Origin: Candidatus Komeilibacteria bacterium | Lineage (GTDB): Bacteria; Patescibacteriota; Patescibacteriia; UBA1558; 2-01-FULL-52-15 | NCBI GenBank assembly: GCA_043801745.1 | Contig: JAZDLR010000021.1 | Location: forward strand, 6,018 to 70,017 | Length of the DNA stretch: 64,000 nt | Direction: 5' to 3' | Shown here: positions 40,011 to 62,384 of the stretch, piece by piece | Layout of the letters: each line of letters starts with the position of its first letter | Numbering within the stretch: position 1 is the first letter of the stretch | The notes under the pieces: model-generated | Told to the model about the DNA's origin: nothing | What the model saw: only the letters and a program-made list of their open reading frames with translations | Database searches by the model: none | Program-made: the position numbers and the translations under genes

Positions 40011-40170
40011 TACCTCACCCCAACCCTCTCCTTGAAAAGGAGAGGGAGGATGCGCGGAGGTTGAGTAGAGCGACTAGCTTTATAAATAGCGTTCCTCTCC
40101 TTTTGAAGGAGAGGACAGGCCTGCCCGCCGTAGCTCTGAAAGTAACGAAGAGCGAAGGCGGGTGAGGTAA
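40011..40170. repeat. MITE family A copy 1 (TIR TACCTCACCCC...GGGTGAGGTA; internal CTCTCC-TTGAAAA-GGAGAG hairpins)
   Basis: Terminal 11-bp inverted repeats. Homologous copies at 61644-61824 and 62227-62384; a related fragment at 59225-59300. Confidence 0.6.
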
Positions 40171-40179
40171 TCTAACAAA

Positions 40180-41028
40180 TTATTGACGACTCAAAGCCAG
40201 CACCCGAATCCGGTTACTGAGATCAGGATAGAAAGTATAATCCCAATCAGGCAGAGTTTGCTTAATATCGCTTTCAATAATATCTTTTTGACTGGGATCA
40301 AGTTCTAAGAGAACCAGTGAACCTGATTTGGTAAATGCCGGCAGTTGCGGTAAAAGTTGTCGGATAAAGTGCAATCCTTGTTTACCGCCGTGCAGAGCTA
40401 ACTCCGGTTCGTGCTTAATCGAGGGCTCGGTTAATTGTTCAATGGTAAGGTAGGGGAGATTAGCTACAATCAGGTTGTAGGTTGTAGGTTGTAGGTTGTA
40501 GTCAGAGAACGTATTAAAAAGATTTGATTGTATGAAAGTAACAGCCGCGTTATTTTCAATGGCATTTTTTTTCGCTACTGCCAGAGCTTTGGCTGAAATA
40601 TCACTGGCAAAGTAATTAAACTGATTATTGGTTTCACAAGCCAAAGTAATGATCAGACAGCCCGAGCCAGTTCCGACATCCAGAATACTGGCTTGTTTTT
40701 TATCTTTCAGATATGCTAAAGCTTTCATAATTAGAACTTCGCTATCCGGCCGGGGAATTAGCACATCAGGATTAACTTTAAATTTCAGGCCATAGAATTC
40801 CTGTAAACCGCGGATATAGGCCATCGGTTTACCCGTTGCCCGCTCTTTAACCTGATTAATAAAATTGTTGTATTTATCATCGTTAATGTCTTGTCCCGGA
40901 TGCATCAGTAGCTGACTGCGGTCTACTTCTAAAACATGACTAAGCAAAAGATCGGCTTCGCCGGGATCAATAGATTGGGCTCGTAAGATTGAAGCTGCCT
41001 GTTCTAGGGCAGCTTGGATGGTAGGCAT
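40180..41028 (-). CDS. prmC: Release factor glutamine N5-methyltransferase PrmC (HemK)
   Basis: SAM motif 'ILDVGTGSGCLIITLA' and 'LIVANLPY' (NPPY-type). Directly downstream of prfA. Contains an in-frame (CTACAAC)4 repeat. Confidence 0.8.
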   Translation of the reverse strand: MPTIQAALEQAASILRAQSIDPGEADLLLSHVLEVDRSQLLMHPGQDINDDKYNNFINQVKERATGKPMAYIRGLQEFYGLKFKVNPDVLIPRPDSEVLIMKALAYLKDKKQASILDVGTGSGCLIITLACETNNQFNYFASDISAKALAVAKKNAIENNAAVTFIQSNLFNTFSDYNLQPTTYNLIVANLPYLTIEQLTEPSIKHEPELALHGGKQGLHFIRQLLPQLPAFTKSGSLVLLELDPSQKDIIESDIKQTLPDWDYTFYPDLSNRIRVLALSRQ

Positions 41029-41029
41029 A

Positions 41030-42082
41030 TTAAGTTGTGGCCGTCTGTTTTTCGGCTGTATGCAGGGCTTGGATTAATTCATCTAAATCGCCGTCCATAA
41101 TATCCGGCAAGCTATGACCGGTATATTTTATGCGGTGGTCAGTCAGCCGGTCTTGGGGAAAGTTATAGGTGCGGATTTTCTCACTTCGGTCACCGGTGCC
41201 GATCTGACTTTTACGCGCATCAGCCCGCTCTTGATGCAGACGTTCTTTTTCTAGCGCGAGAAGCCGCGAAGCTAAGACTTGCAGGGCTTTTAAGCGGTTT
41301 TGCTGTTGTGACTTTTCATCCTGACAAGTTACTATCATTCCTGTGGGCACGTGGACTACGCGTACGGCGGAATAAGTTGTATTAACTGATTGTCCGCCGT
41401 GTCCGCCGGCCATAAAAGTATCTATGCGTAGATCCTCGGGCTTAAGTTGAATATCCGCTTCTTCCGCTTCCGGCAGAACAGCCACAGTGACAGTGGAAGT
41501 ATGAACACGGCCGGCTTTTTCCGTGGCCGGTACCCGCTGTACGCGGTGTACCCCGGATTCATATTTAAGATCACGGTAAACGTGGTCGCCGTGCACTTCG
41601 AAAATGATTTCTTTATAACCGCCAAGCTCCGTGCGGTTGGCGGAAATAATGTGCGGCCGCCAACCGTGACGCTCAGCGTAGCGGGTATACATGCGGAATA
41701 ATTCCGCGGCAAAAAGCGCCGACTCATCGCCACCGGCCCCGGGACGGATTTCTATAATAATATCTTTCTTGTCCAGAGGGTCAGCTGGATTAGTCAGGTC
41801 TTCCAGTTTATTTTTAGCTTCGGTGAGTTGCGATCCCAGTTGAATAATCTCCTCCCGCGTCAGAGCAGCCATTTCCGGATCAGGCTCGTTGTTCAAGGAC
41901 AACTCCAGATGCTCAATTTCGAACAGCAGCTGGCTGACAGTTTCGCTGGTTTCCACAATGTCTTTCTTTTCCTTGTATTCTTTATTTAAAGCTTGCATTT
42001 TCGCCGGATCAGAAGCAGCGGCCGGAGTGGACATTTCAGCCTCTAGTTCTTGCAGACGTAGTTTTAGTTCTTGAATATTCAT
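41030..42082 (-). CDS. prfA: Peptide chain release factor 1
   Basis: GGQ motif 'GGHGGQSVNTT', RF1-type 'PATEKAGRVHTS'. Confidence 0.9.
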   Translation of the reverse strand: MNIQELKLRLQELEAEMSTPAAASDPAKMQALNKEYKEKKDIVETSETVSQLLFEIEHLELSLNNEPDPEMAALTREEIIQLGSQLTEAKNKLEDLTNPADPLDKKDIIIEIRPGAGGDESALFAAELFRMYTRYAERHGWRPHIISANRTELGGYKEIIFEVHGDHVYRDLKYESGVHRVQRVPATEKAGRVHTSTVTVAVLPEAEEADIQLKPEDLRIDTFMAGGHGGQSVNTTYSAVRVVHVPTGMIVTCQDEKSQQQNRLKALQVLASRLLALEKERLHQERADARKSQIGTGDRSEKIRTYNFPQDRLTDHRIKYTGHSLPDIMDGDLDELIQALHTAEKQTATT

Positions 42083-42141
42083 GGTGGGAATTAAAAACAG
42101 AGCTCGGCTTCATTATAGCAGGAAGCAGAACTCTGGCGTAG

Positions 42142-42432
42142 TTACTTTTCGGCTTTGGCTTTGCCGGCTTTCTTGACTTTGGCCGCGGCTTTCTTGACCT
42201 TGCGGCCCTTGCGCACAGCCGATTCAGCTGCTTGCTTGCTGACCAATTTCTTGAAGCGGTCAACGCGGCCGGCAGTATCAATCAGCTTATCTTTACCGGT
42301 ATAGAAAGGGTGACATTGGGAGCAAATTTCCACTTGTAGTGATTCTACAGTAGAACCCACGGTAAATACATTACCACAGGCGCAGGTAATCTTAGCTTTG
42401 GGATAATAGGTGGGGTGGGTGTCTTTTTTCAT
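42142..42432 (-). CDS. rpmE: 50S ribosomal protein L31 (with Lys-rich C-terminal extension)
   Basis: '[23 protein letters not shown]...[11 protein letters not shown]'. Confidence 0.85.
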
Positions 42433-42466
42433 AGTAGTCGCATAATAACAGAGGATTAGGGGGTTG

Positions 42467-43285
42467 TCAATAATCTAGCTTGGAGAGTAATTTTTTGACC
42501 TTGCCACTATCAATCCTTTGATCCCAACCCGTAAGATTAGTTAGTTTCTTATTGACCTTGCCTTTTTTCAGAGCAGTGCTGACAATAACTCCGTTGGCAT
42601 AATTAAGAATAGTGGTGATATTTTTCGAATTAACTCCGCTACCGGCCAGAATAGGATGTTGACCGGCTGCCCCGCGGGCAATAGCCAGGTCAGTTGTTTG
42701 CGGCGCGTCACCAGTCCAGCTGCCGGTTATGATTAAAGCGTCTGAACCTTTCTTAATTGCCAGACGGGCTGATTGCGCCAGTGAATAGCGGGACAATAAT
42801 TTTGCATGCTTAACGTGAATATCAGTAAAAATTTGCACGCCTTCAGCTTTGATTTGACGCCGGTAGCGTATTACATCATCGGGCTGACCTTTGATGATGC
42901 CGCAGGCAGTTTTAACGGTGTCCACAAAAACCGGAATTCTGATAAAAGATAAATCGGCAATTTTAGCAATTGATAATGCGGCGCGGTAATCGTTCCAAAG
43001 TACCGATATACCCAGAGGCAGCCGGGGAAAGCTCTGACGTAGTTTGACAGCCAGATATGTCAGGCAGGCCAAGGATCCGGCCGGAATATTTACCTGATGC
43101 GGCAGGTCATAATTATTTTCCATTATAACTCCTGGCGCTCCGCCGGCTATAAAATTTTTGATGTCTTGGGTGGAATTTTTTAAAGACGTTTTAATACCTG
43201 GAAATTCCGGGTAGCCCAATAAAGGGGGAAAATGAACTGCCCCGATGACAATATGGGAATTTTGCTGAAATATAGACTTTAACAT
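42467..43285 (-). CDS. BtpA/SgcQ-family TIM-barrel protein (putative)
   Basis: '[14 protein letters not shown]...', '[10 protein letters not shown]', '[10 protein letters not shown]' resemble BtpA-family signatures. Confidence 0.45.
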
Positions 43286-43495
43286 TGTGTTAGTATAGCA
43301 TCAGTTATTTTCAGAAAGAAGAGCGGCCCGCGCATAAGAAGGCGCGGGCCGCGGGCTGTCAGGCCAGGAATTCCCGTATGTTCTGAACATGGTTAAAGAC
43401 CTGACCGCTGGCAAAAACTTCGCTGGCCAGCTTCTGAAGTAGTCAAGCAAAACCAGAATACCCGAAGCCCTGGCGGTTACCAAACTGCCGGGGCT
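43283..43495 (+). ncRNA. Candidate small RNA (promoter-like TGTTAGTAT, two strong hairpins, intrinsic terminator)
   Basis: Hairpin GGCCCGCGC-ATAAGAAG-GCGCGGGCC at about 43322-43352. Terminal hairpin GAAGCCC...GGGCTTC followed by TTCTTTTTATT at about 43455-43495. No ORF. Confidence 0.25.
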
Positions 43496-43692
43496 TCTTC
43501 TTTTTATTATGAGAAATAGTTCGCTATAGTGCTTTGTAAGAAAAGAATCTTATCAGCGGCTAATATTAGTCAGGTGTATATTCTGGGGATAATTTCACTA
43601 GCGACAAAGTTGAAATATTAGGTTATATTAAAGGTGGAATTTAGCCTTATTTACATTTTTATTTAGTTGTGCTCTAATGTGGTCACTAATTA

Positions 43693-44313
43693 ATGCCTCT
43701 CTCAATGCCTAGAAAGACCCTTATCCGTGTAATTTTACTAGCTGCCTTTGTGGCGTCTTTTGGCTATCTTTCCTGGACTTCGGTCAGAATCTATAGTCAG
43801 TCGCTGCCAACAGCGGAAACGGCTGATCAGGCAACGTCAACCGATACAGACCAACCCTTGCAAGGAACTAATATTGCTCAAGCAGCTACCGCTAAGTCCG
43901 AAGTCGCGGCTAATCAAATCAATACTTTGCAGGTTGCTGCCATGAAAGTTGACAGCCGGATCTGGGAAGGCGCTGGAACTGCGACACTGAATAAAGGTTT
44001 ATGGCGCATTCCCGGCAGTTCCACTCCGGATAAAGGCGGCAACACCGTTATTGCGGCACACCGCTGGAAATGGTTGCCCACCAGTAAGAAGTCTTTTTAC
44101 GATATTGATAAAGTTAAAGTCGGTGACCAAATTTCTCTGCAGTGGGCCGGCAAAGATTATCAGTATAAGGTTTCTAAAATTAGCACTGTAACTCCGGACA
44201 AGGTTGATATTTTAAAAAATAGTGATCAGCCCAAGCTGACGCTTTTTTCTTGCACGCCGCTTTTTTCCAGCAAGTACCGCCTGATTGTTGAAGCTGATCT
44301 GATAACAACTTAA
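43693..44313 (+). CDS. Sortase (transpeptidase)
   Basis: N-terminal TM. Catalytic His ('VIAAHRW'), Cys in 'LTLFSCTP' (TLxTC), Arg in 'YRLIV'. Confidence 0.7.
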   Translation: MPLSMPRKTLIRVILLAAFVASFGYLSWTSVRIYSQSLPTAETADQATSTDTDQPLQGTNIAQAATAKSEVAANQINTLQVAAMKVDSRIWEGAGTATLNKGLWRIPGSSTPDKGGNTVIAAHRWKWLPTSKKSFYDIDKVKVGDQISLQWAGKDYQYKVSKISTVTPDKVDILKNSDQPKLTLFSCTPLFSSKYRLIVEADLITT

Positions 44314-44360
44314 TTTATTAAATTATTTATTAATTTTCGAGGAGGGTCGACAATAATTAT

Positions 44361-47300
44361 ATGAAAAAATATTTTCACAAGCTGCAGCGGACACTGACGT
44401 TGCTATCCTTGCTGGCTCTGGTCGTGAGTCAAGCGGGATTGCAATCAGTGCCTTTAGCAGGATTGAACTTGACTAAGAAGGCCCAAGCTCAATTAGCGGC
44501 ACCAGTAATAACTATTGGTGGCATGAAATGGGAAGATTTAAACGGGAATGGCGTGCTAGATAGTGGTGAACCAGGTGTTCAAGGGGTTCAGATTAATATC
44601 AATCAATTGCTTTTAGCTGATGCGCCGTCAATAAGAGGTTTATTTATTCCTACGGCCCATGCTGATTTTGTTTATTCCGCCAGTACCGTGACTGATAGTC
44701 AGGGTAACTATTCTTTTACTGATGTACCTCTGGGCGGTAGCTATGATGTTTGTGAAACCGTACCCTCTGGTTGGCACCAAACCTTTCCGATAAATGCTAA
44801 TAATAATTGTCATCGGATAAATTTAAATCTTTCAGAGACAGAATCAGTGACTGGTGCACCCATCTATGATTTTGGTAATCAACGTAATCAGGCTACTATC
44901 GTTGTTGATAAGATCGTTTGTCCGAATGAATCTGACTTGCCCAATTGGGGCGATCATTCTGGCGGCCCAATTGACGCTAATACCGCCGCTGTCTTTTTAC
45001 GGGAACATAAGGATTGTCATCTGGCTTCCGGATGGAGTTTCCAGTGGGCTTTCAATAATGTTGAGAATCCCGGAGATCAAACGGCAACATCAAGTGATTT
45101 GACTACCTTTGGCCCAACAGATGGCTCTGGTCGGACATCAACCCAGGTAGTACTGGGTGATAAGGACGAAATTAGGGTGCGGGAAGTTTTTCAGTCAGGT
45201 TATATACCGTTTACTGGTGCCAGTACTGCCGATAATGTCAGCGCGGAGATTTACTGTAATGATGATGTTCTGAATTATGATAATTATGATTATATCCGTG
45301 GTGCCAGCGTTGGCAACACATATTATTGTGTAGCCTGGAACGTGGCTCAATTGCCAGCCCAGCAGTGCGGTAATGGTCAGGTAGAGGGTACGGAAGTTTG
45401 TGATGAAGGTACGGTTAATGGTCAGCCGCTACATTGTAACCTTGACTGCAGCGGTAACACTCTACCGGTTTGCGGCAACCAGATTACCGAAAGTGATCCT
45501 TACGGCGCTGAGCAATGTGATGACGGCAATTTGAATGACGGTGACGGTTGTAGCTCAACTTGTCAGCAGGAACAGATTGCCTGTCATTCACCGCTAGACT
45601 ATGTCAATACTGAAGGTGTACTCGGTCCTGATCACGGATTAACTTTGAGCGATGCGGTGATTTTTACCCAGAGATACGAAGCAGCTTTAGGCAGTCACAC
45701 TGGTGATGGTAACTTTGATGCTACGGTTGACGTGAATAATGACGGTGCCATTACTGCAGCTGATTATCTTTGCACTCGGCCTTATTACGCTGCCAATGGT
45801 CCGTACACCTGTCAGCTAGATTGTAATAATATCTGCGTCAATCCTTTGGATTATGACCAAAACTATCAGATTACCTTGAGTGATGGAACTGAATTTACGA
45901 ATTATTACGAGAATAAAACTTATGCCACCTCTAGCGCCAGATATTTGGCTGACCTAAATGGTAATGGCGGGGTTGATTATGGTGATTATCTTTGCTCTTA
46001 TGATCAGCTGGCTATGGCTGATTATCAGTGTCCGATTAAGTGCGCCTCGGTTTGTGGCGATGGCACTATTCAGCCACGTTTAGGTGAAACTTGCGATGAT
46101 GGTAATCATATTGATTTTGATGGTTGCAGTTCTTTCTGCCAGACAGAAACTAATGAATGCCAGGAGCCGAATAAATTGGATTATAATCATGATTATCAGT
46201 TTACCGGCGGTGACGCAGTTATCTTTACCAGTTTTTATGAAGCTGATAATAGTCAGGCTGACGTCAATAACGACGGATTAGTTGATTATGGCGATAAGCT
46301 CTGTGCCAATAAATATTACAGCGCAGCCTTAGCTTATGTCTGTGATATTGTTTGTCCAGACTATACTCCAGTTTGCGGTGACACCCATATAGATGAGGGT
46401 GAACAATGTGATGATGGTAATACCACTAATGGTGACGGTTGTAATTCTAGATGTCAGAATGAACAGCTAATGTGTGTTGGTACTGGTACCTATACTCTGG
46501 ACGCTGATTTTGATAAAGGTACTTTGATCAATGTCGTGCATACTCCGAGCGATCAGTTGCAGTTAAGCAGTGAGATGAAGGCTTTTAACTTCATCTGGGT
46601 AGCCGTTTCTACCAAAGGAACAGTGGTGAAGATAAATACTGACACCGGAGCGATTATGGGCGAATATGCCACTAATCCGGCCTCACATGGCTGGGGCCAG
46701 GGCAATCCTTCACGAACGACAGTTGATAAAGACGGCAGTGTTTGGCTGACTAACCGCAACGATGTTTATGAAGGCGTTGGTTCAGTCATCCACATAGGAT
46801 TGGTGGAAAATAATCAGTGCCAAGACCGTAATGGTAATGGTCTGATTGATACTTCGACTGCCCAGAATGATATTAAGCCCTGGACCACTGCTTCGGTTTC
46901 GCCGGGTGTTGGTACAGCCGAAGATGAATGTATTATTCATTATGTGAAATTACCCAACTCCAGCGGTACTAGACACGTTTCTGTTACTGCCAATAATGAT
47001 GTTTGGGTGGCTGGATTATATTCCAGAAATTTTGATTTGGTAAAAGGTGGAGGTCCTGGAGTACCTGGTTCTGGCACCATTATCCGCAGTGAATCTAGTG
47101 TTGGTTATGGCGGTTATGGTGGTTTAATTACACCGAGCGGCGTGATTTGGTCCTCTAATCCGTTAATGCGCTGGGATACATCTGTACCGCTAGTAGCTGG
47201 AAATTTCCTCGGCTACGGACACGATAGCTATGGTTTATGTATAGATCCGAGTGGTAATGTCTGGAATACCTCACTATCCGGAGACCAAATACGGAAATTT

Positions 47301-48743
47301 GCTCCGGATGGTTCTCTGCTAGGAACATTCGGACATGGAAGCTATTACGCTCAGGGTTGTGCTGCAGCTGCCAACGGTGATATTTGGGTAGCTGGCTCTC
47401 TCTATGATACTGTGGTTGGTCACTTGAAAAATAATGGAACTTTGGTCGGTACTGTATCTGTGCCTTCCGGACCTACCGGCATTGCTGTAGATGCTAATGG
47501 AAAAGTTTGGTCAACGAATTACAATGCCGGCAATGTGACCCGTATAGATCCGTTAGGCGGAGCAATTGGTGGCGATGGGGTAACTCCTATTGGATCAGTT
47601 GATCTTACTACAGTTGGTTTAGGTGGAAATCCTTATAACTATTCTGATATGACTGGCAGTACCTTATCCGGCAGCGCCACTAACGGTACTTGGACAGTTA
47701 TTCATGATGGTGAAGTTTCTCTGCCCTGGGGTAGTTTGACTTGGACTGCTACTGGTTCACTGACTGTTACTGTTGCGACCAGTGAAGACGGTTCTACTTT
47801 TGGTGCGCCCCAGACAATTACTAGCGGTCAGGATCTATCCAGCTTAACCTCGCGTTATCTGAAGATTGTTGTTGCTTTCGAGCGGGAAGTTACTGGTGCC
47901 AGTCCGATTCTCTATGATCTGACAGTTAATAGACTTTGCGATCAGCCGCCGGCACCAAGCTGCGGTAATAGCGTTATTGATGAAGGTGAGCAGTGTGATG
48001 AAGGTGAAGTGAACGGTCAACCGGGACACTGCAATAGTCAGTGCTCAGGCATAACGGAAGCGACCTGCGGGAATACAATCGTTGAAGCCGGTGAGCAATG
48101 TGATGATGGTAATATTAATGATGGTGACGGCTGCTCTGCTAGCTGTCAAAGTGAGCAAAATCCGCCCACACCTCCTCCAACTCCTGGTCCTTCCCGCAGT
48201 GGCGGCGGTGGCGGAGGTGGTATGACAACCTTAGCCAGTTTGCTGGTTGCTAAGACAGCTTCTTTGCCTTTCGTTTCACCCGGCTCACAGGTTACCTTCA
48301 CAATTTCAGTTACCAATAATGGTAATGTGATTGCTACCAATGTTTCCTTGGATGATTCTTTACCGGCCGGATTTACTTTTGCTGATGGTGGCGGTACGGC
48401 CAAGACTTGGACCTGGGACACGATTGGAGTTGGTCAGACTGTAACGGTATCCTATTTAGTTAATGTTAGCTCTACCGCGTCTCTGGGCGTTTATTCCAAC
48501 ACAGCCGTGGTTAAATCCAATGCCGGAATCGTCTCAGCTCAAGGTTCGGTAAATGTTGAGGTCCGCAGCCCGCAGGTTCTGGGAGTGGAAACTGAAGTCC
48601 CGGCTAGCGCGGAAAAAGTCAAAGTTCTAGGCTTTGAAGCACTGCCTGATACTTCCGGTGACTGGAGTTACTTAGGAATCTTTGGCGCTTTGATCGTCAT
48701 GGGCCTAAGTATTTTCTACGGCCGTAAAGCTTTCCAAGACTAG
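44361..48743 (+). CDS. Giant (1460 aa) LPXTG-type (LPDTSG) cell-surface protein: signal peptide, 5-6 Myxococcus-type Cys-rich repeats (DUF4215; CGxG...E.CDDGN...GDGCS..C), dockerin/EF-hand-like Ca-binding loops, NHL-like beta-propeller, DUF11 domain, sorting signal
   Basis: Repeats such as 'CGNTIVEAGEQCDDGNINDGDGCSASCQSEQ'. 'DVNNDGAITAADYL'. Propeller 'GSVWLTN/NDVWVAG/GDIWVAG/GKVWSTN'. C-terminal 'LPDTSGDWSYLGIFGALIVMGLSIFYGRKAFQD'. Confidence 0.8.
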   Translation: MKKYFHKLQRTLTLLSLLALVVSQAGLQSVPLAGLNLTKKAQAQLAAPVITIGGMKWEDLNGNGVLDSGEPGVQGVQININQLLLADAPSIRGLFIPTAHADFVYSASTVTDSQGNYSFTDVPLGGSYDVCETVPSGWHQTFPINANNNCHRINLNLSETESVTGAPIYDFGNQRNQATIVVDKIVCPNESDLPNWGDHSGGPIDANTAAVFLREHKDCHLASGWSFQWAFNNVENPGDQTATSSDLTTFGPTDGSGRTSTQVVLGDKDEIRVREVFQSGYIPFTGASTADNVSAEIYCNDDVLNYDNYDYIRGASVGNTYYCVAWNVAQLPAQQCGNGQVEGTEVCDEGTVNGQPLHCNLDCSGNTLPVCGNQITESDPYGAEQCDDGNLNDGDGCSSTCQQEQIACHSPLDYVNTEGVLGPDHGLTLSDAVIFTQRYEAALGSHTGDGNFDATVDVNNDGAITAADYLCTRPYYAANGPYTCQLDCNNICVNPLDYDQNYQITLSDGTEFTNYYENKTYATSSARYLADLNGNGGVDYGDYLCSYDQLAMADYQCPIKCASVCGDGTIQPRLGETCDDGNHIDFDGCSSFCQTETNECQEPNKLDYNHDYQFTGGDAVIFTSFYEADNSQADVNNDGLVDYGDKLCANKYYSAALAYVCDIVCPDYTPVCGDTHIDEGEQCDDGNTTNGDGCNSRCQNEQLMCVGTGTYTLDADFDKGTLINVVHTPSDQLQLSSEMKAFNFIWVAVSTKGTVVKINTDTGAIMGEYATNPASHGWGQGNPSRTTVDKDGSVWLTNRNDVYEGVGSVIHIGLVENNQCQDRNGNGLIDTSTAQNDIKPWTTASVSPGVGTAEDECIIHYVKLPNSSGTRHVSVTANNDVWVAGLYSRNFDLVKGGGPGVPGSGTIIRSESSVGYGGYGGLITPSGVIWSSNPLMRWDTSVPLVAGNFLGYGHDSYGLCIDPSGNVWNTSLSGDQIRKFAPDGSLLGTFGHGSYYAQGCAAAANGDIWVAGSLYDTVVGHLKNNGTLVGTVSVPSGPTGIAVDANGKVWSTNYNAGNVTRIDPLGGAIGGDGVTPIGSVDLTTVGLGGNPYNYSDMTGSTLSGSATNGTWTVIHDGEVSLPWGSLTWTATGSLTVTVATSEDGSTFGAPQTITSGQDLSSLTSRYLKIVVAFEREVTGASPILYDLTVNRLCDQPPAPSCGNSVIDEGEQCDEGEVNGQPGHCNSQCSGITEATCGNTIVEAGEQCDDGNINDGDGCSASCQSEQNPPTPPPTPGPSRSGGGGGGGMTTLASLLVAKTASLPFVSPGSQVTFTISVTNNGNVIATNVSLDDSLPAGFTFADGGGTAKTWTWDTIGVGQTVTVSYLVNVSSTASLGVYSNTAVVKSNAGIVSAQGSVNVEVRSPQVLGVETEVPASAEKVKVLGFEALPDTSGDWSYLGIFGALIVMGLSIFYGRKAFQD

Positions 48744-55131: not shown

Positions 55132-55174
55132 GGAAATTCAAAATTTAAAATTCAAAAAGCAAAATCAAAGGTAT

Positions 55175-55615
55175 ATGGAAATTGGATTAATTGTCCATGT
55201 TTTAATTTTAAATACTGAGGGTAAGCTTTTAGTTTTGCGCCGGCAGAAGAATGATAATGTTTTACCGGGTTATTGGGATATACCCGGCGGAACTTTAGAA
55301 GTAGGGGAGGATCCGGCAGTTGGCGCAGCGCGTGAGGCGCGTGAGGAATGCGGTTTGGAAGTTGAGCATCTGCGGATCGTACATTTTACTTCTAATATTG
55401 ACCAAGAGAAGAATAAACAGTTTGTCCGGTTAATTTTTCAGGCCCGCGCTAAAACCGATAATATTAAGCTTAATCCGGAGGAGCATGATCATTACCGTTG
55501 GATTGACCCCGTTAGAGAGGAAATCTCTAACGGGGTTGATCTTGCACATCCCGACGACCTAAAATATGTTGATTATTTGAAGGGGTGTTTTGGGTTGTTG
55601 ATTGCCAGGAGTTGA
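55175..55615 (+). CDS. NUDIX hydrolase
   Basis: Nudix box '[26 protein letters not shown]'. The 3' end contains the CCCCGTTAGAG-N7-CTCTAACGGGG palindrome. Confidence 0.7.
55504..55539. repeat. Perfect 11-bp inverted repeat ACCCCGTTAGAG-aggaaat-CTCTAACGGGGT embedded in-frame in the NUDIX CDS (encodes [12 protein letters not shown])
   Basis: Same half-site as the intergenic palindromes at 5654, 8452 and 50094. Followed by TTGATC-18-TAAAAT. Confidence 0.45.
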
Positions 55616-55686
55616 TTTAGTTTTGGCGAATAGGCCAGAGTTATTTTTAAAAGCTCCATCTGTAATGTTTCTGGTAGAAATTTAGT

Positions 55687-56235
55687 TTAAGATTTACACC
55701 ACTGAGACCAATCATTATAACTGGCAACCCTTCGATGATCACGACCGACTTTATATTCTGCGCTAAAGGCATCAAAAGGAATGAATTTGTTCTTTCCTGG
55801 CAGATAAACCTCAATCCAGGCATGACTGCGCCAGACACCGTTTCTCTTTAATTTTCCGTCAATAAGTTTCGTTGGTAAGCCAAGGTAACGAAGCACCAGA
55901 GCACTGACGCTGGCGATGCTGCCACAAGTACGTAGTCGCCGCCGGAGTATGACCGATACCGGTAGACAGCGCGACTCACTCTTTTTTTGAGTTGTGGAGG
56001 TGTGATATTTGGCGGGATTAAAATAGTTTCGAATATCGGTGATAATTTTAAAAATGAGCTTATCGCTTACTTGATAATTCTTATAGTTAGAAAAGTTTCG
56101 TAAAAATGAAATTGGGTAGTCGGAGCAATAAGGGCCATTAGTTAAATATTTCGAGGGTGAGGTCAAAATATTATTGCTATTTTGAATTAATAATTTTTTC
56201 TCTTTCTTCGTGCTCGAGATGTTTTGTTTCTTCAT
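55687..56235 (-). CDS. Transglutaminase-like cysteine protease-fold protein
   Basis: Cys in 'LRTCGSIASV', His in 'RSHAWIEVYLP', Asp in 'IPFDAF', with core spacing. Last gene of the candidate RiPP operon. Confidence 0.5.
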   Translation of the reverse strand: MKKQNISSTKKEKKLLIQNSNNILTSPSKYLTNGPYCSDYPISFLRNFSNYKNYQVSDKLIFKIITDIRNYFNPAKYHTSTTQKKSESRCLPVSVILRRRLRTCGSIASVSALVLRYLGLPTKLIDGKLKRNGVWRSHAWIEVYLPGKNKFIPFDAFSAEYKVGRDHRRVASYNDWSQWCKS

Positions 56236-56548
56236 AATATATTAGGTGCTTAATTTCATGATCAATAACTTTGTTGAAACCACCGGCATTTTCAATTTCC
56301 CAAGGGCAGATAAAAATTTTATTAGGAGGAGTAAAGGCTCCCCAGGTGCCACAGTGTACCCAATAACAAATAATATCTCGATCGGAAAAGAGTTCGATTT
56401 TGGGTCTCTTGAACCACAGCAATAACATTCTAAAGATATTTGGATAGAAAACTACGAGTTTTTTTTGTTTAAGCCACTTAAGATTGCTTAAAGTTCTATA
56501 ACTCCAGCGTAAGTCTTCAATTAGGCTATATTTATAGGCAATCATCAA
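56177..56548 (-). CDS. Small HExxH-motif protein (putative zinc metallopeptidase-like)
   Basis: 'VIDHEIKHLIYYEETKH'. 123 aa. Overlaps the next gene by 59 nt, so the true start is uncertain. Confidence 0.35.
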   Translation of the reverse strand: MMIAYKYSLIEDLRWSYRTLSNLKWLKQKKLVVFYPNIFRMLLLWFKRPKIELFSDRDIICYWVHCGTWGAFTPPNKIFICPWEIENAGGFNKVIDHEIKHLIYYEETKHLEHEEREKIINSK

Positions 56549-56698
56549 GAATAATTTCTAAGATAGTGTGTTTAGAAACAACGATAAAGCATTTACTAAT
56601 TGAGGTAAATTTTGTCCGTTTATAGTCTCGTTCGTGGACAATCGGCGTAGTAGAGACCGTTGATTATGTATTTTGAGTACACGGGTGTCTGGCACGTC

Positions 56699-57409
56699 TT
56701 AAATATTATTCAAATATTCTTCTGATAGTTTATCAAAGGTCGTGATAATATCGCGATTTACTTTCCAGCTATCAATCACTAATTGACGTAGTTTCTCATG
56801 ACCCAGATAGCCAATTTCAGGACGTTCAATTAAATCGCTCAATTCTAAATTAAGTAATTCAGTCAAGGACTCTTTGATATCGTACCTCTTCTTTTCCTCC
56901 ATTTCACGTAATTTTTTGTCAAAAACGTGATAAGTGTAAAAATGAAGTAGCTCGTGGCAAATTATTCTTAGTGGCTCATTACTATAAGCCGTGACAAAAA
57001 AATAATTTTGACCTAAACCGCATCTATCATTTGTTGTCAAATAGGCGGTCAATTCTTGTTGCGGGTAATCGTAATTGAAAATTTTATCCAGGCGGGTTTT
57101 AACGTTATTTTCAACTGGTAGCCATAATGTCTGGATGTCAAGTAATTTTTGTCGAAGATCAAATTTATTATATTTGACGAAGCCTTCGATAAATTTTGTC
57201 AAATTATTATCGCTAAAATCATATGCAAATTTTTTAGTAAAAAACGCCAAAACCTTTGAATCGCCGCCTTTATATTTGGTATTGGCAATTATTTTATAGT
57301 TTTCTATATCTTTTTCTAGATCATACTTTATATTTAGCAGCATAATGAATATTGTTAATAAATAGTTGAGGCCCACCTTTAGGGTAGGCCTCAATGGATT
57401 ACTAGTCAA
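56699..57409 (-). CDS. HExxH-motif protein (putative metallopeptidase-like), possibly membrane-anchored
   Basis: 'LRIICHELLHFYTYHV' with a downstream Glu. N-terminal hydrophobic segment. Confidence 0.4.
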   Translation of the reverse strand: MTSNPLRPTLKVGLNYLLTIFIMLLNIKYDLEKDIENYKIIANTKYKGGDSKVLAFFTKKFAYDFSDNNLTKFIEGFVKYNKFDLRQKLLDIQTLWLPVENNVKTRLDKIFNYDYPQQELTAYLTTNDRCGLGQNYFFVTAYSNEPLRIICHELLHFYTYHVFDKKLREMEEKKRYDIKESLTELLNLELSDLIERPEIGYLGHEKLRQLVIDSWKVNRDIITTFDKLSEEYLNNI

Positions 57410-57420
57410 CGTGATGTCAA

Positions 57421-57588
57421 CTAGTCCTGATCACATGACACGCAGTTGGTGCCACCGCTTCCGCTGCTACCGCCGTCTGAGCAGTCACAGTTGTAGCAGT
57501 TGTCAACGATGACGAGCGGTAACATTTGCATGGCTGGAAAGTCTTCCCTTGCTTCCAGCATGGCTTTTATGTCGAACTCCTCATTCAT
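57421..57588 (-). CDS. Candidate RiPP precursor peptide (55 aa): MNEEFDIKAMLEAREDFPAMQMLPLVIVDN-CYNCDCSDGGSSGSGGTNCVSCDQD
   Basis: RBS AGGAGGACGGTT-ATG. The ATG overlaps the radical-SAM stop in ATGAATGA (translational coupling). The C-terminal core has 5 Cys plus many Asp/Ser/Thr/Gly. Confidence 0.55.
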   Translation of the reverse strand: MNEEFDIKAMLEAREDFPAMQMLPLVIVDNCYNCDCSDGGSSGSGGTNCVSCDQD

Positions 57589-58948
57589 AACCGTCCTCCT
57601 TTCGCTCTCGGTCAAGAGAGATGAACCCCCTTGAAGCAAGTAGAGAAATGACGCGCGTGAATTCTCTATCGCCAGGATGACATCCGGACAATTGAGCTAG
57701 ACGTGCAAGCGATATTGGAGAATTGTTCCTAAGAAAGATGACAAAATGAAACATTGGCCCATTGATCGCGGTTACGTTCCTGTTTGCCCGCGAAGAGGCG
57801 ATCAAATATGTGTTTTTTCCCTCCCCTCTATATCTTAGTGGGTTTGACAACGTTACTACAGTGTCGGGTGTTAACTGTGGTGCTATACCTGAATTTGGTT
57901 TCTCAGGTGGTCTTGCGGTGGGAGTTGTCATCCATGGGTCCTCACCTTTGTCATGGCCGGTTAAAGCTTTGGCGGTAATTCTGCAGCCGCCGAAGCAATT
58001 TGTCACTAGGCCACAGGCGAGGCATCTATCGGGAGTTGTCTGTGTGTCTCGCCACTCAGACATTTTTTCCCAGATTGTCTCCAGTGGTTCGGATAGAAGG
58101 TTCCCATAGATTTTTGGGTTATGAGAACAGGGACGGATGTCGCCATTGTTGGCAATAGAAGCTACGGTTTTTCCCGCCTGACAGCAACGACTTACGAAAG
58201 AGTAACCGGCATCTCTTACGTACGGCGGGAATATACATTTGGGTAGCGCTTCAAAGATGTCAACCTCCATCCGTAGTTTTTCCTTAATACGGATTAGCTC
58301 TTTGATGACGGTTAGAACATCTTCTTGAGACAGCAGACGTGTGGAGTCAGGATTTTGAAGATTGAGTGCCATTGGGGTGACACCAAACATCCTTACTCCT
58401 AGATCACGCATCCGTTCCGCGGTTTGTCTGATATCGGCCAGATTTCGTTTATTGACCACCATATTGATGGCAAAGCGCTGTCCACTAGCGATAAGCATTT
58501 TAAGGTTATATTCAAACCTTTCGTAAATGCCGCCGCCAGTCATAGCCGAGTACAGTCGAGCATCACTCGAAGGACAGGAAACGAGCATGCTGTCGAGACC
58601 ACGGGCCACAAGAGATGCCAGTGATGCTTGATTGAGAAGAATCAGATTGGTGTTAAGCGATACATAAACACCATTTTGTTTGAGGTAATGAATCACCCTG
58701 AGAGCTAGCTCCTTGCGTACTAAAGGCTCGCCCCCGGTAACTACCACACCAAAAATCCGATCTTCAACGAGTTTCCTGGCCATTTCCATTACCAGCTCAT
58801 CAGGAATATCGGCCGTTTTTTTGACACGGTCGAATTCGAGATGATAGCAATGACTGCAACGCAAATTACATCTGTCAGTAATCTCCAGTTGCATATTTAT
58901 GGGTCGAGTCAGAGTCGGCATCTTGTCCTCCGAGGTATCGTTATGCAC
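57581..58948 (-). CDS. Radical SAM enzyme with C-terminal SPASM/twitch cysteine cluster (RiPP maturase-like; SCIFF/ranthipeptide-type)
   Basis: 'CNLRCSHCY' (CX3CX2C). Auxiliary clusters 'CCQAGK...CSHNP...CLACGLVTNCFGGC'. The likely start is the internal ATG at 58921 (GGAGGACAAG-ATG). Confidence 0.8.
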   Translation of the reverse strand: MHNDTSEDKMPTLTRPINMQLEITDRCNLRCSHCYHLEFDRVKKTADIPDELVMEMARKLVEDRIFGVVVTGGEPLVRKELALRVIHYLKQNGVYVSLNTNLILLNQASLASLVARGLDSMLVSCPSSDARLYSAMTGGGIYERFEYNLKMLIASGQRFAINMVVNKRNLADIRQTAERMRDLGVRMFGVTPMALNLQNPDSTRLLSQEDVLTVIKELIRIKEKLRMEVDIFEALPKCIFPPYVRDAGYSFVSRCCQAGKTVASIANNGDIRPCSHNPKIYGNLLSEPLETIWEKMSEWRDTQTTPDRCLACGLVTNCFGGCRITAKALTGHDKGEDPWMTTPTARPPEKPNSGIAPQLTPDTVVTLSNPLRYRGEGKNTYLIASSRANRNVTAINGPMFHFVIFLRNNSPISLARLAQLSGCHPGDREFTRVISLLASRGFISLDRERKEDGYE

Positions 58949-59224
58949 ATAGCAGACCGACGGCTATCAAATATGCCGTCTCACATTCCTTCGCCAAGGT
59001 AGGTACTGTTCATGACAAAGTCGTCAGTTTGAGTCTGAAACCGACGGCTATATTTGTGTTAAAGTACTTGTTTACATATGTATTTTAGCATCTTGTTCTG
59101 CTATTGGTAATCGCTTATGGTTTTCTTTAAAAAAATATGATCTATTGATTTAGCCTAAATAATTTATTTATCGGCGCAACAAAAAGATTAGTAATAATTT
59201 TTATTTAAATAGATTCTGGTAGGG

Positions 59225-59300
59225 ATAATTTGTTTTAGCGTTCCTCCTTTTGAAAGGGGAGGGTGACCGAGTGATTTCAAAAGATGGTGCCCTCTTGACA
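59225..59300. repeat. MITE family A-related fragment (TTCCTCCTTTTGAAAGGGGAGG hairpin)
   Basis: Shares the CTCC-TTTTGAA-GGAG hairpin module with 40011-40170. Confidence 0.3.
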
Positions 59301-59369
59301 TTTTTTTAGGTAGCGTTATGCTAAAGCCGTCTATATATTATCCGACGGCTTATTAATTAATGCCAATAT

Positions 59370-60062
59370 ATGAGTAAAATCCTGGCAGATCCGCAGTTAT
59401 TAGGACTGGCAATCGTTACTCTGTTAAATCTAGCTTTAGGACTGTATGTTTTTTTAAAGGATTTTAGAAATGTTTTAAATAAGATATTTCTGTTTTTAGC
59501 CATTTCAATAGTGGCTTGGTGTATCGCTATCTTCTGTACAATTTATTTTTATGAGGATGTCTTCCTATATGATTTGTCTGATAAGTTTACTTACATTGCC
59601 GGTCTTCTAATAGCCATTGGTTTTTATCTTTTTAGCATTTATTACGGCTATAAAAACCATAAGATCTCATCTTTAATTGTCATTGGTTATATTTTATTTT
59701 TTGCTATATTTTCTTATTTAGCCCTATTCTCACATTTGTTTGTGATTAATACTGCCAAAGAGGGCTTAATAACAGTTATTTACCGCAATCAGATGTCTTA
59801 TGCGATATATTCTTTGGCACTCATAAGCTTGTTCATTCTAGGATTAGTTGAATTATGGAAGAAAATGAAGGGCGGGGACGGAGTATATAAACAGCATTTC
59901 TTGACCTTAATCATATTAGTGGGTTTTTCTATTATTCTGAGTATATTCTTTGATCTATCGCTTTCAGCATTTAATAATTATTCTTATAGCGCTGTTGGCC
60001 CCCTATCGTCAGTTTTATTTATCTTCGCCATTATGAGGATGATTAATAGCAGTAAAGAATAG
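59370..60062 (+). CDS. Hypothetical polytopic (about 7 TM) membrane protein
   Basis: 230-aa ORF of alternating hydrophobic helices, Phe/Ile-rich. Divergent from the RiPP-like operon. Confidence 0.5.
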   Translation: MSKILADPQLLGLAIVTLLNLALGLYVFLKDFRNVLNKIFLFLAISIVAWCIAIFCTIYFYEDVFLYDLSDKFTYIAGLLIAIGFYLFSIYYGYKNHKISSLIVIGYILFFAIFSYLALFSHLFVINTAKEGLITVIYRNQMSYAIYSLALISLFILGLVELWKKMKGGDGVYKQHFLTLIILVGFSIILSIFFDLSLSAFNNYSYSAVGPLSSVLFIFAIMRMINSSKE

Positions 60063-60065
60063 CCA

Positions 60066-61034
60066 ATGTCTAAACGCAAGAAAATCGCTTTAATCTATTC
60101 AACTGGCACAGTCTTATCTTCCCTGAAAAACCGCAGTATTGTTTTTGTTGATTCTGATAGTGATATTCCCAAGTGGCTGGAGTCTATTCCGGAGATTTCT
60201 CTAATTGCTGATATTGAGCCGCAATTTTTTTTGTCTGAATCCGCGACTATGGGATATTCTGATACTTTGCGGTTGTCAGAGCAGATTGACATTCTGCGGC
60301 GGCAGGTTGATGGCATTGTGATTCTGATGCGGACCGAAAGTATTATTCAGCAAGCTACGCTACTGAATTTTCTCAATCAAAATGTCACCATTCCGGTTAT
60401 TATTACCGGCGCTGTGGTTTCGCCCCAAGCTTTGACCGAGGGCGTACTGTCGGATATTTCCAAGAAAAATGTCGCCTTGAGCCTGAAGAGTAATGTGATT
60501 AACGCCACTCAGGTAGCAACCCGGGATTTTCACGGCTTTGGCCTGATGTATGGTAACCGTTTAATCGAACCGGTCCGCGCCCAGAGAGATAATATTGAAG
60601 CGCTTAATGTATTTAGTTCAATTGATGGTAACTACGCCGGCCGGGTGGAATTTGGCATTAGCTTGAATCAGCCCAAAAAGGCCGATAAGCCAACTAAACA
60701 TTATAATAATTTTTCTACTAATGTAACTGTTATTGACTCGTCTTTCTTAACTCTGGGTAGCTTAAAAAATCTGACAGCTGACGCGGTTATTATTAAAATT
60801 CGGGAAAATGAGCAGTTACCTTTGGAAGTTTACGAAGCCTTACGTCAGTTAAAACAGCCGGTAATTCTTTATAATTATTGGTACGTTTTGGAGCATAAAG
60901 GCCTGATAGATATTTCTCATATTACTGAAGAGAGCTTATTGGCAAAAGTAATGTGGCTGGCGGCTGACAGCAAATCAACGGCAGCGTTTTATCAAAGAAT
61001 AAGCGAAAACGTAATTGGGGAACTACTGCAATGA
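60066..61034 (+). CDS. Asparaginase-family-like protein with degenerate catalytic motifs (possibly non-catalytic)
   Basis: 'IALIYSTGTVLSS' (cf. TGGTIAG) and 'GIVILMRTESI' (cf. HGTDTM), 'PVIITGAVVSP'. 322 aa. Confidence 0.35.
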   Translation: MSKRKKIALIYSTGTVLSSLKNRSIVFVDSDSDIPKWLESIPEISLIADIEPQFFLSESATMGYSDTLRLSEQIDILRRQVDGIVILMRTESIIQQATLLNFLNQNVTIPVIITGAVVSPQALTEGVLSDISKKNVALSLKSNVINATQVATRDFHGFGLMYGNRLIEPVRAQRDNIEALNVFSSIDGNYAGRVEFGISLNQPKKADKPTKHYNNFSTNVTVIDSSFLTLGSLKNLTADAVIIKIRENEQLPLEVYEALRQLKQPVILYNYWYVLEHKGLIDISHITEESLLAKVMWLAADSKSTAAFYQRISENVIGELLQ

Positions 61035-61597
61035 GAATCTATTATTTTGCTAATGTCAAGAATCCGGCTCAACTTCTGATATTTCAGGAAGCGTCTTCAT
61101 TATTACGTAAGTATGGCTTATCAGTGGTTGACAACGTTAAATCCAAGCCTGACTTTGAATTAGGCGAGCAGGGAGGCGTTGATCAGATAGACGCGGTGAT
61201 TATTGATGCTAGTGGTTCCGATGCCGAAGCCGGTTATTTACTGGCCGTGGCTATTGCTCATAAGAAGCCGGTTTTATATTTATTGCCGGCTGGTACGCAG
61301 CTTGACACGTCGGTGAAAGCTTTGACTCTCAATAAAGCCATCAAAGATTATCTGCGCGTGGAATTTTTCCTGACAGTGAATTTTTCCAAGAAGATTAAAG
61401 AATTTCTACAGTATTTGGATCAGGATATTGGCAAGGAAGCGCATTCAGTGAAATTTACTTTACGCCTGACGCCGAAACTGGAACGTTATTTAAACTGGAA
61501 AGCCGAAAAAGGTAATCGTAACAAGGCGGATTATGTCCGTAGCTTTCTGGAGGAGTCCATGAAAGCGGACGAGGAATATAAGAATCGGTTAAAGTAG
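61031..61597 (+). CDS. Hypothetical protein, nucleoside 2-deoxyribosyltransferase-like fold suspected
   Basis: 'MRIYYFANV...DAVIIDASGSDAEAGYLLAVAIAHKKPVLYL' resembles the NDT-like Rossmann pattern. Weak. Confidence 0.3.
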   Translation: MRIYYFANVKNPAQLLIFQEASSLLRKYGLSVVDNVKSKPDFELGEQGGVDQIDAVIIDASGSDAEAGYLLAVAIAHKKPVLYLLPAGTQLDTSVKALTLNKAIKDYLRVEFFLTVNFSKKIKEFLQYLDQDIGKEAHSVKFTLRLTPKLERYLNWKAEKGNRNKADYVRSFLEESMKADEEYKNRLK

Positions 61598-61643
61598 AGG
61601 AGCAGAAAACGGGGATGATGAGTCCTTGTTTTATTATTTAACG

Positions 61644-61824
61644 ACCTCACTCCCGCCTGCTAACGCCTGAGCGTAGCGATGGCGGGCAGGCCAACCCTCT
61701 CCTTAGAAAAGGAGAGGGAGGATGCACTCCTAAACAGGGTTCCTCTCCTTTTTAAGGAGAGGACAGGTGAGGTAATTAAAATAACTCCGAGGACAGCTCG
61801 CCCGCCTCTGGTGAAGTGAGGTAA
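61644..61824. repeat. MITE family A copy 2
   Basis: ACCTCACTCCC...GTGAGGTAAT termini. Internal CTCTCC-TTAGAAAA-GGAGAG and CTCTCC-TTTTTAA-GGAGAG hairpins. Confidence 0.55.
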
Positions 61825-61851
61825 TCTAAAAAATTGCTAGGCAATTTAATA

Positions 61852-62250
61852 ATGACAAAATTATTTAATAAACCAGAAGAGACATTTAAACGTCGAATCT
61901 TGAGAGTCAATAATCCATTGGCTGAATTAAGAATGTGGTACTTATTGCGAAATAGACGATTAAATAATCAAAAATTTCGTCGTCAGTATGGTATTGGTTC
62001 GTTTGTTGTGGATTTCTATTGTCCTGAAGCAAAGTTAGTAATTGAGATCGATGGTGCTACTCATAGTACTAAAGGGGAGCTTGAAAATGACCAGAAACGT
62101 CAGGATTACATAGAATCCTTAGGACTAACTGTTATACGCTTTACGAATGAAGAGGTATATTACAGACCTGACAGAGTATTAAGAAAAATACGGAGAGTTT
62201 TGAAACAATTGAAGAATTGTTTGAATACCTCATCCCAACCTTCTCCTTGA
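61852..62250 (+). CDS. DUF559/Vsr-like endonuclease-domain protein
   Basis: 'FRRQYGIGSFVVDFYCPEAKLVIEIDGATHS...DQKRQDYIESLGLTVIRFTNEEV'. The last 8 codons and stop lie inside MITE copy 3. Confidence 0.65.
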   Translation: MTKLFNKPEETFKRRILRVNNPLAELRMWYLLRNRRLNNQKFRRQYGIGSFVVDFYCPEAKLVIEIDGATHSTKGELENDQKRQDYIESLGLTVIRFTNEEVYYRPDRVLRKIRRVLKQLKNCLNTSSQPSP

Positions 62251-62384
62251 AAAGGAGAAGGGGGTAGCGCGTGGCGGAAAAGAGCGACTAGCCATTAATT
62301 TACGTCCCTCTCCTTTTTAAGCCAGCCCCGAGCGAGGTCGAGGGGGAGAGGACAGCTTGCCCGCCTCTGGTGGGGTGAGGTAAT
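62227..62384. repeat. MITE family A copy 3 (TACCTCATCCC...GGGGTGAGGTAAT)
   Basis: TIRs and hairpin modules homologous to copies 1 and 2. Overlaps the 3' end of the DUF559 gene. Confidence 0.55.

Follow-up and report, generated by a model that had tools for sequence, protein, structure and literature searches.

The 64-kb window analysed here (64,000 nucleotides of contig JAZDLR010000021.1 from a Candidatus Komeilibacteria bacterium) carries at positions 61852–62250, on the plus strand, a gene for a 132-residue protein of the DUF559 family of Vsr-like PD-(D/E)XK endonucleases, in the neighbourhood of genes for an asparaginase, a 188-aa protein and an alpha/beta hydrolase. The gene stands between two structured repeat elements, copy 2 on its upstream flank (61643–61824) and copy 3 on its downstream flank (62226–62384), and a third such element, copy 1 (40011–40170), lies by itself more upstream; none of the three is assigned to a strand. 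DUF559 is the sole gene of the window bounded by modules of these repeats, and their tails point inward, toward the gene. We found that this layout recurs far beyond the window, as a cassette of ~0.5–0.6 kb in which a DUF559 gene of ~120–130 aa, the sole gene, is enclosed by one hairpin-plus-tail module per orientation, the tails facing the gene and forming terminal inverted repeats (TIRs). This cassette is conserved from bacteria of the candidate phyla radiation (CPR) to Escherichia coli, where the gene is known as ycjD.

The repeat elements measure 160–180 bp and have the ends TACCTCACCCC/GGGGTGAGGTA in copies 1 and 3, while those of copy 2 are degenerate (GACCTCACTCC at 61643, and TACCTCACTTC at 61813–61823 on the minus strand). 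The 11-mer TACCTCACCCC is found exactly at 40011 (plus strand) and 62372–62382 (minus strand), and with one mismatch at 40159–40169 (minus strand) and 62226–62236 (plus strand). The pattern CCTCTCC-N6-9-GGAGAGG occurs four times, always within copies 1 and 2, at an expectation of 0.00 from shuffled sequences; the hairpins of copy 3 are the variants CCTTCTCC/GGAGAAGG and one interrupted hairpin. Copy 1 folds with -78.7 kcal/mol (z-score -7.0 against shuffled sequences), copy 2 with -84.1 kcal/mol (-5.4) and copy 3 with -70.6 kcal/mol (-3.3), and in repeat finding the three regions are joined by several shared blocks (families D6, D7, D10, D12, D17 and D19; inverted pairs I4, I19 and I20). By its 11-mer ends, hairpin pattern and fold z-scores, the repeat family with TIRs and hairpin modules that the first-pass annotation had proposed is thus real. 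Its three full copies lie within 1 bp of where they had been placed, two of them do bracket the DUF559 gene, and copy 1 does adjoin a GC-rich island (36–40 kb, GC 0.52–0.55 against ~0.45 elsewhere). The Rfam and tRNA scans of the window gave no match, which puts the elements outside every curated RNA family.

Underlying these elements is a recurring unit of ~40 bp, which consists of a pyrimidine-rich tail ACCTCACCCC of ~10 nt, a spacer of 2–4 nt and a hairpin CCCTCTCC-loop-GGAGAGGG of 8–10 bp, one arm of which is all-pyrimidine and the other all-purine. In a left module the tail comes first; a right module is the reverse complement, with the hairpin followed by GGGGTGAGGT. Each 160-bp copy combines a left and a right module, tails outward, across a variable linker. 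The stand-alone doublet of copy 1 has its left tail at 40011–40021 and left hairpin at 40024–40046, followed by the right hairpin at 40093–40115, a nested CCCGCC...GGCGGG hairpin at 40120–40162 and a right tail ending at 40169. The left module of copy 2 comprises a tail at 61643–61649, a nested hairpin at 61650–61690 and a hairpin at 61695–61718, its right module a hairpin at 61741–61763 and the tail CAGGTGAGGTA, which runs up to 61774; beyond it, at 61785–61824, comes a further, incomplete right end. In copy 3, the left module (tail 62226–62236, hairpin 62239–62261) overlaps the end of the DUF559 open reading frame (ORF), and the right module has its 5' arm at 62305–62313, a loop insert of ~22 bp, its 3' arm at 62345–62352 and the tail GGGGTGAGGTA at 62372–62382. 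The nested hairpins of copies 1 and 2 sit at corresponding positions, in both cases between the tail and the hairpin, and are inverted versions of one another (inverted pair I4).

The first-pass annotation had regarded each copy as a unitary 160-bp MITE (a miniature inverted-repeat transposable element), a description that does not hold. A multiple alignment shows the copies to be mosaics of modules, with no single colinear 160-bp consensus. In the closest syntenic relative, L002, the operon terminator lies between the left and the right module upstream of DUF559, which indicates that the halves are independent ~40-bp modules; in the window, the intrinsic terminator of the upstream operon (61606–61632, plus strand) lies outside copy 2. 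Solo halves are also present, in the window at 16708 and at many other loci. A module can stand alone, pair with an inverted partner so that the tails point outward, or contain small extra hairpins. The modules themselves do not score as intrinsic terminators, and true terminators stand beside them. Copy 1, for instance, sits between the prmC stop codon (40180, minus strand) and the prmC terminator (39973–39991). The nearest PrmC homologue is 53% identical, too distant for an alignment of the intergenic region at this site.

The protein encoded between copies 2 and 3 matches PF04480 (DUF559) with E = 5e-32 and also PF18741, both being PD-(D/E)XK families. Among solved structures, 3HRL comes closest (E = 2e-21; 1.6e-31 when the family profile is used), and the family profile also matches I-Bth0305I, a homing endonuclease of a group I intron (3R3P, E = 1.6e-4). 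VSR, DUF559 and DUF2726 form one PD-(D/E)XK clade in Table 1 of PMC3424549, the functions of which include that of a group I intron homing endonuclease. Residues D54, E65, D67, H71 and D80 are invariant across 29 homologues; judged from these matches and residues, it is plausible that the protein is a nuclease. No cytosine-5 methyltransferase gene is adjacent to it. Copy 3 contains the final seven sense codons of the gene (TSSQPSP) together with its TGA stop (62248–62250), which falls in the loop of the first hairpin of the copy. The element hence does supply the C-terminus and stop of the gene, as had been claimed, with seven sense codons where eight had been counted. The same is seen in many cyanobacterial and CPR orthologues, whose C-termini are translated module (STPPQPSP, TSPQPSPL, TSPQPSPSKGEGG) of the general form (T/S)(S/P)PQPSP.

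We determined how widely this bracketing holds in a sample of 80 DUF559 loci from named species-representative genomes, located by a search built on 10 homologue sequences and covering Cyanobacteria, Nitrospirota, Patescibacteria, Ignavibacteria, Bacteroidota, Planctomycetota, Alpha- and Gammaproteobacteria and others; the 1,186 ORFs in the same loci served as controls, and a perfect pyrimidine/purine hairpin was the criterion. Such a hairpin lies within 250 bp upstream of the gene in 62/80 DUF559 loci (2.4% of control ORFs) and at its 3' end in 55/80 (2.7% of control ORFs). Hairpins on both sides are found in 45/80 DUF559 loci (56%) as compared with 0.17% of control ORFs, the background density of hairpins being 0.10 per kb. 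Their orientation, too, is fixed. Upstream, the hairpin closest to the gene has a GRGGT tail after it in 41 loci and an ACCYC tail before it in 13; downstream, the closest hairpin has an ACCYC tail before it in 40 loci and a GRGGT tail after it in 9. The conserved unit therefore reads hairpin-GGGGTGAGGT, gene, ACCTCACCCC-hairpin, or, in short form, hairpin-GGGTGAGGT, gene, ACCTCACCC-hairpin. Within one locus, the modules on either side of the gene are genuine inverted repeats of each other: their 7-nt stems are identical in 21/44 loci (shuffled mean 4.4, maximum 12) and their loops in 17/44 (shuffled mean 0.65, maximum 4). That this module-gene-module layout is kept across phyla suggests that the partner protein of the modules is DUF559 itself. 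The sampled loci hold one DUF559 gene each, out of a family with 2,152 relatives in the first search and at least 563 loci among species-representative genomes; carriage on plasmids is rare (24 of 72,556 records, several of these being chromosomes).

Gene and modules are also gained, lost and relocated together. In the relatives L001–L009 the cassette occupies the same site as in the window, and in L001, L002 and L004 the sole modules within 20 kb are the three around the DUF559 gene. The more distant, syntenic locus L182 consists of the asparaginase gene, the gene for the 188-aa protein, 192 bp and the hydrolase gene, without DUF559 and without any module; its flanking proteins are 81% and 62% identical (amino acids) to those of the window. 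DUF559 genes with 84–93% nucleotide identity are found in unrelated contexts (L166/L178, L131/L154, L152/L175 and L134/L158), and the homology of these relocated cassettes is bounded by the outer edges of the hairpins, the upstream end matching the downstream one in inverse. The earlier suggestion of a cassette-like gene with its flanks is borne out by both observations. Syntenic pairs exist too (L124/L153 and L135/L146), which alongside the relocated ones indicates mostly vertical inheritance with occasional relocation. The window gene is only 65% identical to its syntenic counterpart in L002 (10001–10435), compared with 76–93% for the neighbours, a faster divergence that is due to rapid evolution or else to replacement of the cassette by another allele.

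Two further observations belong to these comparisons. The empty DUF559 site of L182 (1590–1660) is filled by CCTACNN repeats, which are complementary to heptamers that the window carries as tandem repeats, namely AGGTTGT in 4.3 units within the prmC ORF (40472–40501) and TAGGTTG-type repeats at 35628–35673. Furthermore, the DUF559 cassettes of a Candidatus Jettenia metagenome-assembled genome (MAG; L148) and of a Thaumarchaeota MAG (L163) are 83–85% nucleotide-identical, one being planctomycete and the other archaeal, which is due either to cross-domain transfer or to mis-binning; the DUF559 copy of L163 has an in-frame stop.

Modules and protein vary together. The stems differ by lineage, both arms changing in step (CCCTCTCC, CCCCTCC, CCTCCCC, CCCCCC, GTCCCCC, CCCGCCCC), and the tail of the module tracks the stem. 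Pairing within the hairpins reaches 98.8%, and 7/8 pairs change on both sides, numbers that are descriptive only. In 39/74 cases the nearest protein neighbour of a DUF559 protein has the same stem class, against 14 expected (maximum 27). For 28% of dispersed modules, the stem is exactly that of the module next to the local DUF559 gene, as compared with 5.8% for a random other locus. Away from the gene, the typed modules comprise 113 solo modules, 18 tails-outward pairs and 10 tails-inward pairs. In viral and proviral contigs the left-module pattern was found in 91 stretches, mostly in the high-GC form CCCTCACCCCAACCCTCTCCC-loop-GGGAGAGGG; both of the contigs that hold DUF559 have the module at the 3' end of its ORF.

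The window itself contains related modules beyond the copies that had been annotated. Run on the window, a covariance model that had been derived from modules in other genomes detected a solo module of a third subfamily at 16708–16744 (plus strand; 39.2 bits, E = 1.5e-8), with the tail CTACCACCCC and the hairpin CCCCTCCTT-GGT-AAGGAGGGG, at the 3' end of a miaA-like gene. Two tandem doublets of a sister subfamily occupy 36604–36805 (no strand assigned), with tails AACTCCC / GGGGAGTT and stems CTCCCTC, CCCCTC and CTCCCC; they and copy 1 lie on opposite sides of the GC-rich island. Of the fragment reported earlier at 59225–59300, a trace of a module is indeed present, in the form of a marginal, degenerate single module at 59243–59279 on the minus strand (14.4 bits, E = 0.07).

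The same architecture is found in model organisms. The E. coli K-12 gene ycjD, a DUF559 gene, ends in ...RRSPSP and its stop codon within a module, and the right module CCCCTCGCCCCTCTGGGGAGAGGGTTAGGGTGAGGGG lies between ycjD and fabI, ~170 bp downstream of ycjD, where the covariance model from other phyla detects it with E = 6.6e-4. Counted over all 5,426 E. coli genomes, the median number of places per genome that hold a 51-bp piece of this ycjD–fabI module is 19. The BoxC repeat of E. coli was first described in the envM (that is, fabI) region. The ycjD–fabI module has the hairpin-plus-tail design of the modules in other phyla, and its ~19 places are close to the published BoxC count, BoxC repeats being 56 bp long, of unknown function and present in 22–32 copies (~32 as listed in PMC2267715). 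Judged by copy number and location, the ycjD–fabI module is probably the classical BoxC repeat. Compared with BoxC, the modules of the window are AT-richer and mostly arranged in doublets. The gene is polymorphic in E. coli, where ycjD replaces eefRABCD between sapF and fabI; phylogroups A, B1 and C carry ycjD, and the others have eefRABCD in its place (PMC12817139). The same module flanking is found for the DUF559 gene on plasmid pAQ6 of Picosynechococcus PCC 7002 and for the Neisseria gonorrhoeae gene whose product is the protein of PDB entry 3HRL.

Some details of these loci stand by themselves. In E. coli K-12, part of the ycjD 3' end is duplicated (GGAGACGGTGCTGGAGAATATTC...GAACCG) between the two modules downstream of the gene (L181, 11250–11420, minus strand), and upstream of ycjD there is a perfect palindrome CACCTCATTCTGACAA...TTGTCAGAATGAGGTG with ACCTCA/TGAGGT tails. 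In N. gonorrhoeae (L184, 1938–2664) the module occurs three times downstream of the 3HRL gene with a period of 281 bp and is hence part of a larger tandem repeat.

With this in mind, we favour, at a probability of roughly 0.55, the reading that the DUF559 gene and its inverted modules form the cassette of a nuclease-and-repeat system that works like repetitive extragenic palindromic (REP) sequences and their REP-associated tyrosine transposases (RAYTs). We hold the association of DUF559 with the modules with high confidence, and the mechanism with moderate-to-low confidence. According to this proposal, the DUF559 nuclease would recognise the tail-plus-hairpin module, be it as a DNA hairpin, a cruciform or a palindrome of two tails. 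Cutting at modules, followed by host repair, would then lead to the copying or maintenance of the cassette and of gene-less modules, much as REPs and their paired form, the REPINs, function with RAYT, with a cut-only nuclease in place of the HUH transposase. On this reading, the modules near the gene in the window were later elaborated by a second half added downstream and an extra right end upstream, and it is through such elaboration that a module has come to supply the C-terminal TSSQPSP and the stop codon. In its widest form the proposal is more tentative: small endonucleases of the YcjD type may be the cognate enzymes of pan-bacterial BoxC-like hairpin-plus-tail repeats, and the two together a second system of the REPIN/RAYT type that is built on a cut-only PD-(D/E)XK nuclease.

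Several points weigh against this reading. We infer every step of the mechanism from the arrangement. PD-(D/E)XK nucleases are unable to rejoin DNA, and spread would therefore require host repair. The route by which the elements would enter new sites is not evident, and neither an insertion scar nor a target-site duplication was found. The co-variation of protein and modules, like the match of stems and loops within a locus, would also be expected from the common descent of a linked unit, and the count of covarying pairs is partly circular because modules were chosen as perfect hairpins. Most modules are far from the gene, DUF559 being present in only 2 of the 91 module-bearing viral or proviral contigs, and the window has three module subfamilies and only one DUF559 gene in 64 kb. 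Stand-alone doublets carry their tails outward, opposite to what an internal deletion of the cassette would leave behind, and are thus not simple deletion derivatives. Finally, VsrA of Caulobacter, a DUF559 protein, has been described as a methylation-linked, Vsr-like repair nuclease that induces the SOS response once the cytosine methyltransferase is deleted, with no mention of repeats (PMC12907096).

Part of this evidence would be accommodated by reversing the order of events, with the modules as older, independent repeats into which a free-standing homing-type DUF559 endonuclease gene has landed. The enzyme would cut a site formed by tails, such as the palindrome GGGGTGAGGTAAT/ATTACCTCACCCC, and the gene would be copied in by repair, the modules serving as homology arms and the flanks representing the split target. 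The gene does stand exactly between two mutually reverse-complementary tails, as fits a split palindromic site; the family profile matches the intron endonuclease 3R3P, of the same clade in PMC3424549; the cassette is present in the window and L001–L009 and absent from the conserved site of L182; gene-less tail-to-tail pairs exist (10 cases); and most modules are located away from DUF559. However, the empty site of L182 has no module at all, indicating that there the modules came with the gene and not earlier, and in L001, L002 and L004 the modules within 20 kb are confined to the surroundings of the gene. An active homing gene with so many targets would moreover be expected at high copy number, whereas each locus has one DUF559. 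Altogether, we consider this order of events unlikely. Still less probable is a purely cis-regulatory role, in which DUF559 is a resident Vsr-like repair nuclease whose hairpins control its own expression, either through mRNA stability or through pairing of the 3' ACCUCACC tail with the Shine-Dalgarno-like 5' GGUGAGGU tail, and in which hairpins elsewhere are general elements of 3' untranslated regions (UTRs), like REPs, independent of the DUF559 protein. Indeed, the upstream tail GGTGAGGTAAT, 5–60 bp ahead of the start codon, looks like a ribosome-binding site and has its complement in the downstream tail, copy 1 and the left module of L002 are transcribed 3' UTR, given their position between stop codon and terminator, and the phenotype of Caulobacter VsrA is of the repair type. 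Regulation in cis, however, leaves unexplained why two-sided hairpins accompany 56% of DUF559 loci and 0.17% of other ORFs, why the loops at both ends are identical, why gene and modules are gained, lost and relocated jointly with homology ending at the module edges, and why phyla far apart have the same module sequence.

The first-pass annotation had favoured mobilisation in trans; on such a model the element would be a classical MITE moved by a DDE-type transposase with matching TIRs encoded elsewhere in the genome, and the DUF559 gene a passive catch between two copies. The 11-bp TIRs, small size, strong fold, the presence of several copies in 64 kb and their location in intergenic 3' regions are all what one would expect of a MITE. 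The target-site duplication that was to be looked for did not appear, there being none that is consistent at the flanks of all window copies and of L002. The flanking triplets of the copies are AAT...AAT, ACG...AAT and GAT...AAT, and the AAT/ATT beside the ends extends the inverted repeat (ATTACC/GGTAAT) and is not a direct duplication. No transposase is encoded in the 64-kb window or in the conserved parts of the 80 cassettes, the halves of the element are separable, and oriented bracketing in 45–62 of 80 loci across phyla exceeds what chance capture would produce. Of the rivals, a MITE moved in trans is thus the least compatible with bracketing across phyla, no duplication and no transposase, and we regard it as very improbable.

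In literature on DUF559, COG2852, ycjD, BoxC, cyanobacterial MITEs and small dispersed repeats, and the module sequences, subscription-only papers lying outside this scope, we found no description of an association between DUF559 and the modules; nor does any paper found on DUF559, COG2852 or ycjD link BoxC to ycjD or DUF559 or report BoxC outside enterobacteria. In E. coli, BoxC-type repeats have stood in catalogues for decades, with neither origin nor function assigned to them. If the nuclease-and-repeat reading is true, it would give a role to DUF559, a large family of unknown function, and to an orphan E. coli repeat known for 30 years. The oriented cassette, found from CPR bacteria to E. 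coli, leads to a directly testable hypothesis for both, and a second class of system with another enzyme chemistry would widen the explanations available for short bacterial hairpin repeats. As to annotation, C-termini of DUF559 proteins of the type '...TSPQPSP' and many short hypothetical 'PSP/GEG' ORFs are read-through into modules.

The window holds further features. Despite the cyanobacterial look of its repeats it is of CPR origin, and the nearest named relatives of its PrmC are from Patescibacteria. The GC-rich island, at 36850–39950 (GC 0.52–0.55 versus ~0.45), contains ORFs that overlap on both strands and have no Pfam match, and it is bordered by the tandem module doublets (36604–36805) on the left and copy 1 (40011) on the right; a perfect 12/12 sigma-70 consensus promoter with TG extension, running from 39927 to 39899 on the minus strand, is directed into it. 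A second, unrelated repeat family is present at 4568–4696, 11321–11428 and 17928–18011 (AGATTGCTTCGTCGCCC...hairpin...CTCCTCGCAATGACA, partner TTACTGTCATTGCGAG), its three copies each having an internal palindrome of 35 nt. AT-rich inverted repeats of 52–60 nt, at 13192–13307 versus 25901–25960 and 26356–26407, lie ~12.6–13.1 kb apart and could bound a larger mobile or invertible segment. An ORF of 1,460 aa at 44361–48743 contains repeated Cys-rich GEQCDDGN..GDGC...C units, and its product is probably a surface protein.

Known systems resemble the DUF559 cassette in part. Like the classical bacterial MITEs Nezha, Correia and Chunjie (PMC3184786), the elements are 100–200 bp long, intergenic and stably folded, have TIRs and can fuse to the ends of ORFs; unlike these, they show no direct target duplication and no cognate insertion sequence (IS) transposase, are built of separable 40-bp modules and are conserved at the DNA level across phyla. 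With the repair nucleases Vsr of E. coli and VsrA of Caulobacter, the latter having a DUF559 domain (PMC12907096), the protein shares fold and catalytic motif. Those enzymes are, however, tied to cytosine methyltransferases and T:G mismatches, whereas no methyltransferase is adjacent here, and bracketing by repeats is outside the Vsr model. The Vsr-like (EDxHD) homing endonuclease I-Bth0305I (3R3P) belongs to the same nuclease clade, and the DUF559 gene is likewise of small, selfish-gene size and present or absent at a conserved site, but in contrast to genes of that type it lies outside any intron or intein and is flanked by structured inverted repeats that are also dispersed.

The closest parallel is offered by REP and REPIN sequences with RAYT (Nunvar et al. 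2010, PMC2817692; Bertels & Rainey 2011, PMC3116915). Nunvar et al. linked RAYT to REP by two inverted flanking units, co-evolution and fast evolution of the gene, which evolves faster than its neighbours (PMC2817692), and the DUF559-module arrangement likewise shows the inverted flanking units and the fast evolution of the gene, together with a co-variation that simple linkage would also give. As with REP and REPIN, the unit is short and palindromic with a conserved tail and forms inverted doublets that fold into a long hairpin; as with RAYT, the gene is present once per sampled locus between two inverted units that co-vary with the protein, outpaces its neighbours in evolution and is inherited mostly vertically with occasional transfer. 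The differences concern sequence and chemistry. The tail of the module is ACCYCNCCC instead of the GTAG or CGTC of REP, and the arms of its hairpin, unlike those of REP, are strictly all-pyrimidine and all-purine. RAYT is a Y1 HUH transposase of the IS200/IS605 type, while DUF559 is a PD-(D/E)XK protein of ~125 aa, without the covalent intermediate of RAYT/IS200 chemistry. With an enzyme of another superfamily, unable to rejoin DNA, the DUF559 cassette would thus work like a REP/RAYT system and not be a member of it.

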